From IMG/VR virus record IMGVR_UViG_3300022758_000169: DNA of 39,612 nucleotides; one strand, 5' to 3'. The position numbers and the translations under genes are program-made. Below, piece by piece: positions 16,733 to 19,375 of this stretch (positions are counted from its first letter, which is position 1; each line of letters opens with the position of its first letter). Source of the DNA: a virus. Its lineage: Duplodnaviria; Heunggongvirae; Uroviricota; Caudoviricetes. Below the pieces are notes generated by a model that was not told the origin of the DNA, searched no databases, and was given only the letters and a program-made list of their open reading frames with translations.

Positions 16733-16822
16733 ATCAATGACTCCGTACGCAATTAAATTATTACCAATTTAACCACATATGATTTATTTATCGTAGACAG
16801 TTGACATTTAACGCGCGAATTA

Positions 16823-16837
16823 TTACCTTTCAGGTAA
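16823..16837. promoter_or_regulatory. operator-like palindrome TTACCTTTCAGGTAA with TTGACA 17 bp upstream
   Basis: Perfect TTACC-N5-GGTAA; TTGACA at 16801..16806. Confidence 0.5.
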
Positions 16838-17159
16838 CCAAAGAGTTCATTCCGGTTACTAACCTGACTGGCTTGTCGTTAAATTGAACAGGTGGAGTGA
16901 GCTTTTATTTTGAGCAGTACGGCGTATGGCACATGCGCCGATAGCGGTCTGGATGCGTTTAAGGGGCACCCTCCCTGGCTGTGGCAAACGAACCAGGTAG
17001 CCGGAATGTGCAAGTCGAGCGGTTTTATTCCGCGCACGGGGATTCACCATCCCGGCGATTCGGTGTGACGCCTCGGAAGAGACGAGGGTACAACGATGAG
17101 AGCATTTATGGAGCCGCGACAAAGTGTGGCGCCTTAACAGGCTAAGTGCTCTCAGCGTT

Positions 17160-17236
17160 GTGGCATTAGCTCAGTTGGACAGAGCAACCGCCTTCTAAGC
17201 GGTTGGTCGCAGGTTCGAATCCTGCATGCCACGCCA
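17160..17236 (+). tRNA. tRNA-Arg (anticodon UCU), phage-encoded
   Basis: Manual cloverleaf: acceptor GTGGCAT/ATGCCAC, D-stem GCTC/GAGC, anticodon stem ACCGC/GCGGT with loop CTTCTAA, T-arm GCAGG-TTCGAAT-CCTGC, discriminator G, encoded CCA. Confidence 0.85.
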
Positions 17237-17398
17237 GAATCACGCCTAAGGACCGTGATGCCAGAAGTTCCAGGTGCTTGGCGGTGATGGTTTCCCTTGA
17301 AGGACTATCACCGCCCTTTTACAGCAGGACGCCATTGCGATGACTTCATGCTGTAAACCAGTACAGCCACGGAAGGCATAACTCATTGCTTCCAGTTC

Positions 17399-17421
17399 GC
17401 CCGGTTCGCCGGGCATTTTTT
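17399..17421 (+). terminator. intrinsic terminator or attenuator (UUCG tetraloop hairpin plus U6)
   Basis: GCCCGG-ttcg-CCGGGC followed by ATTTTTT, ending just before the SD of the ORF at 17434. Confidence 0.5.
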
Positions 17422-17433
17422 AAAGGTGAGATC

Positions 17434-17856
17434 ATGAAGACAATTGATATGTTGGCTAAGTATCTAAATGAATGGCCATTAAAATATTCTCGTATCGTTC
17501 AGGCTGAAGACTGCATTTTTTATGGCGTTTTTGCTGGTAATGAAATGCATTACGAAGTAATTCAGAGTGAGGGACTGGCCGGGTTAACTCTTAGCGAAGA
17601 CCATGGTACTAGCGTTACGTACCATGACTGGATTTCAGCGCAGAAAACTGAAATGGAAAAAGGCAATGTGTTTGATATTTCTCGCGCTGTATACGCCAAA
17701 GAAAAAAGTGATGATGATTACATGCGCGAAAACTTATACAACATGAAGTTACAATGCCTGGCTGAAGTGCTTAGTAAAAGATCTTTACTTGATGTGGTTG
17801 GTGCTGAGCAGGACGCCAAGGCAATCAACGCCGCATTCGATAAAATAACCTTCTAA
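17434..17856 (+). CDS. hypothetical protein (moron, opposite strand to virion genes)
   Basis: SD AAAGGTGAG then ATG; 140-aa ORF; flanked by tRNA upstream and terminator downstream. Confidence 0.6.
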   Translation: MKTIDMLAKYLNEWPLKYSRIVQAEDCIFYGVFAGNEMHYEVIQSEGLAGLTLSEDHGTSVTYHDWISAQKTEMEKGNVFDISRAVYAKEKSDDDYMRENLYNMKLQCLAEVLSKRSLLDVVGAEQDAKAINAAFDKITF

Positions 17857-17876
17857 CGCCGTGACATGTCACAATC

Positions 17877-17901
17877 AGCCCGCCGATTCGCGGGCTTTTT
17901 T
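17877..17901 (+). terminator. rho-independent terminator
   Basis: AGCCCGC-cgattc-GCGGGCT followed by TTTTT. Confidence 0.6.
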
Positions 17902-19375
17902 ATGCAAAAGGATCATAGTCTGTGATGGCTTTGCCTTGCTGGTTCTGCTGCCCGGGAATTCGCAGACGCTTCGACACAGGGAACGCAAACGTCAGCAGTA
18001 GCGCATCGCCTTTACCAGGAGAACGCCCAAGTCGCTCTTTGATATCTTCCTTCGGTTCGATAACGATTTTACCGTCCACGCGAACTTTGTACTCTGCCGT
18101 CGACAGGTCGTCCGCTGTTTCCTGGTCATCCAGCATGCCGCCGAGCCTCAGCCATGTCTTGCATGAGTTGAACATCTCCCCACGCTTGTTGAGCATCTGC
18201 GGGTCAGTAGACGCGCCACCGAACGGAACAAGTTGCCATGTACGACCCCAGCCGTCACCGATTGACTTCAAACCGGTTCCGTAACCGAAGTCGATGAACA
18301 CCGCGTCAGCCTGATACTGGTCTTCAAAGTCAGCGATACGCTTCGCCATAATCAGATCGTCGGTAGTCTTGTTGCCAGTCCACAGCACCTTACTGTGTAG
18401 CCCCTGCCGCAGGTATATCACCGCGTCATCAACGCCGGAGTATGCCGGGTCAACGCCGATTATCACCGGAGCATGTGCCACCTGCGCAGCGGTTACCACC
18501 CGTTTCATTGCCTCGTCAGTAAGACCGGTAGGGATAAACTGCAATTCAGATGCATCAGGGAATATGCCGCGCACACGGATTTTAACGAAGTCGCTGTCTT
18601 CCCCGTAGTCATCAACCCATTTCTGCAACTGCTGTTTGTTAGTGCCTTCCACCGTTCGGCTGTCAATCTGCGCAGTTTTCCAGCGGTGTTTATATTTGCG
18701 GAAACATTCGCGGAAACGTCCGGTATTACGCGTCGGGTTTCCGAACGCCACCCAGATAATCTCAGTGTCTTCGTCCGTTAGTGCACCCTCGGCAACTTCC
18801 CACACCAGATCCGCAATGTTCGACGCTTCATCGAATACCACGATGATGCGTTTGCGCTCGTTGTGTAGTCCGGCGAATGCCTCAGTGTTGTGCTCAGACC
18901 AGGGGATTGCGTCAGCTCGCCACCGCTTGTCGTGTCCAGGATCATTGCTGTACATCGCGGTAGCGGTACAGGTAAACCAGTCTTTCGTGATAGCAAGGTT
19001 CGACCACTTGATAATTTCCGGCCAGGTCTTCGTTCGTAGCTGGTTGTCGGTGTTGGCGGTCACCACAACCTTACAATCCTCGCAAGTGGACATGCCCCAG
19101 TTGATCAGCATTGAGATGAATGCGGATTTACCAATACCGTGACCAGAAGCGCGTGCCAGCATAAGCGGCTGATAACGCGTCTCTGGATTCTGCAGGTGAT
19201 CACGTATCTCTCGGAACGCATCGGCCTGCCACTGACGTGGACCGGTAGCATGTGCCAGTTCAGTCCCCTCTTCCCCCCAAGGGAACGCATAGAGGGCATA
19301 GCCAAGCGGATCGTGAGTGAACCCTGCAATATCTTCGATTAACTGCTCTTCAGGAGATAACGCTGCATCTGTCAC
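17900..19375 (-). CDS. terminase large subunit
   Basis: 491-aa ORF; Walker A-like ASGHGIGKS; GTG start overlapping the small subunit stop. Confidence 0.8.
   Translation of the reverse strand: MTDAALSPEEQLIEDIAGFTHDPLGYALYAFPWGEEGTELAHATGPRQWQADAFREIRDHLQNPETRYQPLMLARASGHGIGKSAFISMLINWGMSTCEDCKVVVTANTDNQLRTKTWPEIIKWSNLAITKDWFTCTATAMYSNDPGHDKRWRADAIPWSEHNTEAFAGLHNERKRIIVVFDEASNIADLVWEVAEGALTDEDTEIIWVAFGNPTRNTGRFRECFRKYKHRWKTAQIDSRTVEGTNKQQLQKWVDDYGEDSDFVKIRVRGIFPDASELQFIPTGLTDEAMKRVVTAAQVAHAPVIIGVDPAYSGVDDAVIYLRQGLHSKVLWTGNKTTDDLIMAKRIADFEDQYQADAVFIDFGYGTGLKSIGDGWGRTWQLVPFGGASTDPQMLNKRGEMFNSCKTWLRLGGMLDDQETADDLSTAEYKVRVDGKIVIEPKEDIKERLGRSPGKGDALLLTFAFPVSKRLRIPGQQNQQGKAITDYDPFA

Follow-up and report, generated by a model that had tools for sequence, protein, structure and literature searches.

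The put RNA of HK022, a lambdoid phage devoid of N, is encoded at putL and putR and is a cis-acting RNA antiterminator of about 70 nt that comprises two stem-loops (PMC9378689). The DNA analyzed here, the virus record IMGVR_UViG_3300022758_000169 with its full length of 39,612 nt (hereafter the window), is a phiV10/epsilon15-like temperate podophage, and carries next to the large terminase gene a plus-strand cassette with a structured RNA element whose setting recalls that of put. The element is likewise structured and is found, in temperate enterobacterial phages, just downstream of a presumably repressor-controlled early promoter, with terminators between the RNA and the genes and no antiterminator protein gene before them. 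By contrast, its core measures about 170 nt (about 245 nt with the stem P6) and it has five helices in all, it occurs once per genome rather than twice, and in phage P1 it is internal to an operon. The likeness to put is one of logic only, antitermination by the element being suggested here by its arrangement.

The cassette can also be compared with other known phage elements. Morons, a concept derived from HK97 and HK022, are autonomous promoter-gene-terminator units in phage late regions that are typically expressed from the prophage. Like them, the cassette is placed between conserved late genes, with a putative promoter and clear terminator motifs of its own, and its gene content differs among close relatives. 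It departs from them in that its promoter carries a phage operator and is probably shut in the lysogen, and in that a conserved chassis, which includes RNA genes, is retained while the open reading frame (ORF) alone is swapped, precisely at the start codon. The tRNA-Arg(UCU) of the cassette resembles those of other coliphages and cyanophages in being complete, in its UCU anticodon, in its distinctness from the host copy and in residing in an AGA-rich phage. Here, however, it is embedded between a structured RNA and terminators, and its 5' GUGG is part of a GUUGUGG motif that ends the element even in phages devoid of the tRNA. The GOLLD and ROOL RNAs are also phage-borne, structured and, in some genomes, adjacent to tRNAs, but the present element is much smaller, has no match in Rfam (E up to 10) and is mostly found without a tRNA nearby. 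The predicted order of the parts is an operator-controlled sigma-70 promoter, a 5' hairpin, the structured RNA of about 245 nt, the tRNA-Arg(UCU), a terminator (T1), hairpins, a second terminator (T2), a ribosome-binding site (RBS), the cargo ORF and a third terminator (T3), which together would form a self-contained early transcription unit that is transcribed against the late genes. The tRNA and the ORF are fairly ordinary parts of this cassette; its notable part is the unannotated and widespread structured RNA module.

The element, whose coordinates are given in Table 1 with those of all other features, is a real structured RNA on the plus strand. A model of the core with four helices and a pseudoknot was evaluated on 38 diverse copies (alignment A3). 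Pairing is possible in 94.8% of the cells for the modeled structure, compared with 29–53% when the partners are slid, and changes on both sides are found in 13 of the 26 pairs. The compensatory cells number 90 versus 28.6 in shuffles, and none of 500 shuffles reached 90. Many G-U pairs are compatible with the plus strand only. The fifth stem, P6, encloses a variable insert and covaries as well (GAGAGCA/UGCUCUC, AAGAGCA/UGCUCUU and AAAGGCG/CGCCGUUU). It is ended by the GUUGUGG motif, which holds a fixed place in about 39 of 56 context classes and whose GUGG is, in the window, the start of the tRNA. The pseudoknot is tentative, as its support consists of a single covarying pair in three related sequences. 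Most invariant nucleotides of the element are found in its junctions, and the length of its peripheral stems, P2 and P3, is variable. The covariance model, R1, scores 149.6 bits at 16916–17100, and the 596-nt stretch 16830–17425, which spans leader, tRNA and terminators, is highly structured as a whole (z = -4.45).

The original prediction, made from the DNA letters of the window, had described the roughly 320 nt upstream of the tRNA as non-coding. This part of the claim stands, but the stretch is not a plain leader, since it harbors a conserved structured RNA with covariation. A protein-coding leader was rejected, because all six frames are closed in 7 of the 38 diverse copies and the lengths show no multiple-of-3 bias. 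A long-range pairing suggested by RNAalifold (GCACAU/AUGUGC) was discarded too; it involves invariant columns only, and the covarying alternative is the local hairpin of helix P1. A search of Rfam 15 returned no family over 16838–17159, either at the gathering score or at E up to 10, and none in the lambdoid leader. On the strand antisense to the tRNA, terminator region or structured RNA, hypothetical proteins are annotated at L001 (2167–2418, phiV10p04), L004 (3167–3418) and L008 (2443–2811, mEp460_037), where the L numbers denote individual loci of our set; these ORFs are probably spurious. A T-arm-like sequence, GGTCAGTTCGATTCGGACACC, was noticed in the variable insert of P6 in Salmonella phages (L006, about 3040–3140, SPN9TCW), and may be the remnant of a second tRNA.

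The element is present in three unrelated phage types. A sensitive blastn search with 16838–17159 matched 86 phage records, which comprise epsilon15-like phages, the lambdoids mEp460, cdtI, Ayreon, mEp390 and Shiga toxin (Stx2c and Stx2a) converting phages, the phages P1, P7, D6, SJ46 and RCS47, Klebsiella phages and one Stenotrophomonas phage. Among the records listed, the matched stretch is either bare or lies under a hypothetical-protein ORF, and an RNA feature is annotated in none. The invariant 19-mer of the element occurs exactly in at least 120 viral contigs and in 24 species-representative genomes, all of them Enterobacterales except two metagenome bins. In complete E. coli genomes it was found in 1840 of 5426, at 1920 chromosomal and 554 plasmid places, which are unannotated among the matches listed. 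The covariance model detects exactly one copy per phage (149.6 bits in the window, 139 in P1, 176 in mEp390 and 153 in the Stenotrophomonas phage), and epsilon15 itself retains a deleted remnant (42.8 bits). No earlier description of the element was found in Rfam, annotations or literature, a search that left older phage literature and most subscription literature largely outside. Irrespective of its function, a covariation-supported multi-helix RNA is present in the classic phage P1 and in about one third of complete E. coli genomes, is absent from Rfam and from the annotations examined, and is overlain in several records by apparently spurious antisense ORFs.

The surroundings of the element depend on the phage type. 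In epsilon15-like phages, it follows the operator promoter and the 5' hairpin. In lambdoids (at least five phages or prophages), it is located just 3' of the cI gene, its terminator and operator-like repeats, where it constitutes the start of the leftward early transcript (the pL leader), in the same orientation as the operon and with no ORF before it. Strong hairpins with U runs separate it there from the first ORF, a yfdP-like one at a distance of about 600 nt from the promoter, and no N gene is annotated in the lambdoid carriers examined. In P1, the element is part of the ban operon, which is under the control of C1; a tRNA-Ile ends 15 nt before it, and ban begins about 100 nt after it. Most element loci have no tRNA nearby. 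At least one terminator-like site is found within 600 nt downstream on the same strand in 44 of 64 context classes, compared with 21 classes when the upstream side is scanned and 17 for the antisense strand, as judged by an energy-based scan and in classes that are not phylogenetically independent.

The lambdoid leaders contain a stem, GUGGU...ACCAC, at the place where the window has the acceptor stem GUGGCAU...AUGCCAC. In four of them (L008, 2740–3068; L009; L091; L125) this stem closes a variable region at the tRNA position, and the same four possess a T1-like terminator and a perfect hairpin of about 25 bp that ends in UUUUGU; the 329-nt stretch of L008 (2740–3068) has a fold z of -4.7. A hairpin module, AAAGCGCACUCC...GGAGUGCGCUUCC, followed by a GUUGUGG-like sequence, was observed at L037, L117, L005 (in the 5' hairpin) and L136, sometimes twice. 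The leaders that carry the element look like mosaics of a few hairpin modules. A boxA of the rrn or lambda type adjoining the element was considered and rejected: an exact TGCUCUUUAACAA follows the element in one locus only (L088), and the 18 matches scored as upstream all reside inside the portal gene, on the antisense strand and in a single lineage. In L088, a viral contig, the rrn-type boxA TGCTCTTTAACAA is situated about 130 nt after the 19-mer, directly 3' of a hairpin downstream of the element.

At the start of the cassette, the putative promoter with operator that the original prediction had placed at 16801–16837 was recovered, with TTGACA, TACCTT and the overlapping TTACCtttcaGGTAA. 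Its -35 element conforms to the consensus, its -10 element is weak, and the geometry is the same in Salmonella and Klebsiella relatives. A consensus promoter scan performs at chance level (1 found, 1.8 expected) and lists only an overlapping weaker candidate, TAGACA-18-AATTAT. The palindrome TTACC-N5-GGTAA is found at 16 sites in the window, as against 0.77 expected, and this number was reached in none of 100 shuffles. The sites include 938, 1524, 19986, 22660, 22722, 25012, 25724, 25786, 37467, 38586 and 38679, and the one at 37467–37481 is a second, identical copy of the cassette operator. The homologous operator site is annotated as repressor binding in the GenBank record of epsilon15, which also marks an IHF site, a terminator and, in the region homologous to 16841–16906, an RNase III processing site.

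The scattered palindromes are probably repressor operators for many separate promoters, as are those of C1 in P1. Two pairs of isrK and C4 antisense RNAs are present near the window ends in opposite orientation (717–901, minus strand; 38730–38912, plus strand; Rfam 66–79 bits), and an ORF for a BRO-N-like antirepressor begins at about 38916, after the plus-strand copy. These pairs look like immI (c4-ant) immunity modules of the P1/P7 type, here in a podophage. Because P1-type c4/isrK RNAs are present in the window, the phage seems to use dispersed operators as P1 does. The cassette promoter overlaps the operator palindrome that is repeated 16-fold, and is therefore probably repressor-controlled and early; it is most likely shut in the lysogen and active early on infection.

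Between the tRNA and the ORF, a single terminator had been proposed. Two were found, T1 being located upstream of T2. The latter corresponds to the UUCG hairpin and U-tract noted originally about 12 nt before the ATG: its last U is at 17421, the ATG is at 17434, and the RBS AAGGTGA lies between them. The hairpin of T1 has about -22 kcal/mol in relatives, and its U run counts 4 residues in the window versus 5 in relatives. A T1-type hairpin, UUGGCGGU...ACCGCC-UUUUUACA, is common to epsilon15-like and lambdoid leaders that carry the element. In Salmonella relatives, T2 displays two compensatory stem changes (CCCGG/CCGGG versus CCCAC/GUGGG) with conservation of the UUCG loop. The changes in T1 are also compensated, and relatives from E. 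coli, Salmonella and Klebsiella conserve both hairpins. Selection therefore acts on the terminators, and likewise on the RBS directly behind them; the junction T2-AAGGTGAnATnATG is identical before unrelated ORFs in relatives. Since T1 and T2 are conserved and the RBS and ATG after T2 are conserved too, a regulated or assisted read-through is implied, and it is plausible that expression of the ORF depends on it.

From the observed parts and their conservation, and from the observed structure and distribution of the RNA, we infer, as the best explanation and tentatively, an early unit whose structured RNA acts in cis for read-through of T1 and T2. In the lysogen, the phage repressor would occupy the operator and the unit would be silent, and upon infection or induction the unit would fire early. 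The structured RNA, made first, would behave like HK022 put and modify in cis the RNA polymerase that is transcribing it; the polymerase would then pass T1 and T2, and the cargo gene would be expressed. The tRNA would be cut from the transcript and decode AGA. The cargo would be one of a series of interchangeable accessory genes, some of them anti-defense-like in relatives, and in lambdoids the entire early-left operon would be expressed in the same way. A role in cis is favored because the element is constantly found between the early promoter and terminators, and because no protein gene precedes the terminators. The spread of the element among unrelated phages points to a host factor, such as RNA polymerase, rather than to a cognate phage protein.

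Several observations weigh against read-through in cis. The evidence for it is the arrangement promoter-element-terminators-genes in the DNA rather than transcript data. No similarity to put was detected when R1 was run with filters off on the whole HK022 genome (best 6.9 bits, E 0.23), and homology to put was rejected on this basis. In size the element exceeds put two- to threefold, and it has one copy per genome where HK022 has putL and putR, so that it cannot generally stand in for N in the rightward operon. The P1 copy is positioned 2.3 kb from the ban promoter and directly after the tRNA-Ile, with no terminator before ban. The core in L088 is directly followed by a terminator-like hairpin, as in a free-standing RNA gene, and the inclusion of T1 in the conserved module fits equally an RNA gene with its own terminator. 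The phylogenetic dependence among the 64 terminator context classes and the approximate nature of the E. coli AGA baseline behind the tRNA role weigh in the same direction.

The hairpin of L088 and the inclusion of T1 would be accounted for by a stable early non-coding RNA acting in trans, which we regard as rather doubtful although nearly as likely as action in cis. The non-coding RNA and the tRNA would constitute an RNA operon ending at T1; a cut by RNase P at the 5' end of the tRNA (17159/17160) would make the 3' end of the non-coding RNA, which would bind a protein or an RNA of the host and so serve takeover or anti-defense, and the cargo ORF would be expressed by leaky read-through only. 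The invariant junctions and the length-variable P2 and P3 are as in protein- or ligand-binding RNAs. The element is joined to tRNAs in two settings, with tRNA-Arg beginning in the last nucleotides of P6 here and tRNA-Ile 15 nt before it in P1, and such a fusion would give defined ends via RNase P or 3' processing, but most element loci have no tRNA. The T1-type terminator belongs to the shared module, the hairpin of L088 stands directly after the core, and anti-defense-like cargo (Tad2-like, PF11195) is found in the same unit of relatives. Nevertheless, in lambdoids the element always stands behind the early promoter and ahead of the first gene in a long operon, with which it is co-oriented, and a target or partner was suggested by none of the searches made.

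A riboswitch-like sensor or a processing or stability element, which would gate the output of tRNA and cargo by binding a small molecule or by setting the half-life and cleavage of the early transcript, is improbable. The aptamer-like architecture, in which a core of several helices with invariant junctions and a possible pseudoknot is followed by terminators, and the RNase III site annotated in the 5' hairpin of epsilon15 agree with this idea. Yet no alternative pairing of the core with T1 or T2 is evident, and the 77-nt tRNA and more lie between them; the riboswitches and ribozymes of Rfam give no match at E up to 10, and the pseudoknot amounts to one covarying pair in three related sequences. 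An ordinary moron, namely a tRNA and a small accessory gene with leaky terminators behind a merely Rho- or RNase-resistant leader, would explain the own promoter and terminator between late genes, the cargo that varies among relatives and the highly structured 16830–17425, but is hard to credit, as epsilon15-like, lambdoid and P1 phages share an invariant single-stranded 19-nt segment and show compensatory changes that a passive leader would not retain, and such a leader would not be expected again and again in 1840 E. coli genomes.

It is quite possible, if short of probable, that the element is the first of a new family of early phage RNAs directed at the host, being either a self-sufficient RNA antiterminator unrelated to put or a host-factor binder. 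It would then represent a portable module across epsilon15-like phages, N-less lambdoids (including Stx2a and Stx2c phages) and P1-type phage-plasmids, and would control the expression of early genes, tRNA and accessory or anti-defense genes in about one third of E. coli strains. If put-like action in cis holds true, phages would have in the element no more than their second known type of RNA antiterminator that works independently of proteins, and it would explain the opening of the early-left operon in N-less lambdoids, Shiga-toxin phages included.

The cassette had originally been regarded as inserted between the large terminase (TerL) and portal genes. TerL is indeed its neighbor on one side; on the other, the adjacent gene is a 68-aa gp3-like gene and not the portal. 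A recent insertion is contradicted by a survey of 40 distinct TerL-gp3 slots in epsilon15-like phages and prophages of E. coli, Salmonella, Klebsiella, Enterobacter, Citrobacter, Kosakonia and others, in 38 of which the promoter, the upstream RNA, the terminators and the RBS are present. The tRNA occurs in about 22 of the 40. The cassette is ancestral to the epsilon15/phiV10-like group, with exchange limited to the ORF and the tRNA sometimes absent. The slots contain one to three genes each, from at least seven unrelated families. The largest group consists of PF13876 (N4 gp49/Sf6 gp66) and Tad2-like PF11195 genes, and the second is the family of the window ORF. Other cargo comprises an HNH endonuclease and membrane or coiled-coil proteins; the slot is therefore not purely anti-defense.

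The ORF matches PHROG 4846 (E 6e-92), which is annotated as of "unknown function". Its conservation, which had been anticipated, is borne out by 107 homologues in enterobacterial prophages, all from Enterobacteriaceae and all annotated as hypothetical. No match was found in Pfam at E up to 0.1, in PADLOC or in the PDB, and an AlphaFold2 model (predicted local distance difference test score 79.8) revealed no meaningful fold match. In Klebsiella, phiV10 and epsilon15 relatives, precisely this slot, with the same T2 and RBS in front, is taken by genes for Tad2 (PF11195, Thoeris anti-defense) and N4 gp49/Sf6 gp66 (PF13876), and in Enterobacter prophages a homologue of the window ORF stands beside a PF13876 gene. 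The window ORF, however, has no hidden Markov model or profile similarity to either family (hhalign probability <1%). The cassette marks a precise exchange point, T2 plus RBS. Given that Tad2-like and gp49/66 genes are found at this point in relatives, the 140-aa ORF and its slot-mates are candidates for early accessory or anti-defense functions; by its position, the ORF would be an early accessory gene, possibly of the anti-defense kind.

The tRNA is complete and encodes its CCA, as first read. ARAGORN identifies a tRNA-Arg (tct, anticodon at position 35) as the sole tRNA in the window, the Rfam tRNA family (RF00005) scores 73.3 bits versus a gathering score of 29, and the 3' end reads ...CCACGCCA, with GCCA at 17233–17236. 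With its first nucleotides, GUG(G), the tRNA reaches into the 3' end of P6 and into the GUUGUGG motif. Its location on the strand opposite to the virion genes was also correctly recognized, given that the small terminase (TerS), TerL, gp3-like and portal genes are all on the minus strand. The gene is phage-specific and unlike that of the host: the closest tRNA-Arg of K-12 and most E. coli is 85.9% identical over nucleotides 7–77, and the 5' acceptor strand remains unaligned. About 500 records contain the phage-type gene at 95% identity or more, and a tRNA-Arg is already annotated in several GenBank records of relatives. A remnant of integration (attB) was rejected, in keeping with the original view: the attP core ATTGAGTGGGAATGATT, reported for phiV10, epsilon15 and ZX5 (PMC9782041), was located at 32020–32036, 15 kb from the tRNA, which is therefore not an attachment site.

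The codons AGA and AGG occur in the ORFs of the window at 7.9 and 5.5 per 1000, respectively. The E. coli baseline for AGA is about 2 per 1000 codons. In the comparison with host codon usage, which had been proposed for the late genes, AGA is thus used in the ORFs at about four times the E. coli rate, and the AGA-rich genes are a few large genes of the tail or injection type. Two large genes contain 15–16 AGA codons apiece, and the head genes contain next to none. The genes rich in AGA and AGG are located at 2108–4723, 5127–7835, 8107–8655 and 34243–37362, with up to 16 AGA in one gene, which suggests that they are horizontally acquired or tRNA-dependent. A role of the tRNA in the supply of AGA codons would fit these numbers.

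Table 1. Features of the cassette and of the adjoining genes in the window.
Feature	Position	Strand	Basis or remarks
Conserved structured RNA element	16916–17162	+	Covariation, covariance model
Helix P1	16920–16940	+	Helix of structured RNA
P2 base	16948–16952 with 16993–16997	+	Helix of structured RNA
Invariant 19-mer GGTAGCCGGAATGTGCAAG	16996–17014	+	Structured RNA
P3			Variable hairpin of structured RNA
P4	17039–17042 with 17050–17053	+	Helix of structured RNA
Tentative pseudoknot	CACC 17045–17048 with GGUG 17062–17065	+	One covarying pair
P5	17071–17075 with 17083–17087	+	Helix of structured RNA
P6	17089–17104 with 17147–17162	+	Covariation
Invariant 48-bp block between 68-aa head-side gene and cassette promoter	16753–16800	.	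100% identical in 7 phages of E. coli, Salmonella, Klebsiella
Cassette promoter: -35 TTGACA (16801–16806), 17-nt spacer, -10-like TACCTT (16824–16829)	16801–16829	+	Read from sequence
Palindromic operator TTACC-N5-GGTAA, here TTACCtttcaGGTAA, over -10 and start site	16823–16837	.	Sequence
Long 5' hairpin of transcript	16841–16906	+	Minimum-free-energy fold
tRNA-Arg(UCU), encoded CCA	17160–17236	+	ARAGORN, Rfam
Small hairpin AUCACG...CGUGAU after tRNA	17239–17259	+	Sequence; kept in epsilon15-like relatives
T1, terminator-like hairpin GGCGGUGAU...AUCACCGCC (17280–17315), then CUUUU	17280–17320	+	Energy-based scan
Hairpin ACAGCA...UGCUGU	17321–17354	+	Fold; contains stretch invariant in 7 relatives
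Hairpin GGAAGC...GCUUCC	17371–17393	+	Fold
T2, intrinsic terminator GCCCGG-UUCG-CCGGGC (17399–17414), A, U6 (17416–17421)	17399–17421	+	Terminator scan
Shine-Dalgarno AAGGTGA, junction before differing cargo ORFs	17423–17429	+	Same sequence before unrelated ORFs in relatives
Cargo ORF, 140 aa (PHROG 4846)	17434–17856	+	ORF list
T3, cassette-ending terminator (hairpin 17877–17896)	17877–17902	+	Terminator scan; abuts TerL stop codon
Portal	14832–16511	-	ORF list
68-aa gp3-like gene	16526–16732	-	ORF list
TerL, large terminase	17900–19375	-	ORF list
TerS, small terminase	19372–20046	-	ORF list

The closest phages to the region of the cassette (megablast, 16500–18000) are phiV10, HEMP4, PAS61, ZX5 and other members of Uetakevirus (epsilon15-like), with 94–98% identity. 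The site homologous to T3 is annotated as a rho-independent terminator in the phiV10 record. At the opposite end of the cassette, the 48-bp block is more conserved than the adjoining genes. Its minus strand contains TGGTAATAAT, which resembles an extended -10 and is located upstream of the gp3 and portal genes, and the block may be a divergent promoter for these genes. Elsewhere in the window, a match to the Rfam family sRNA-Xcc1 (RF02221) is found at 29759–29848 on the plus strand, with 64.8 bits, above the gathering score.

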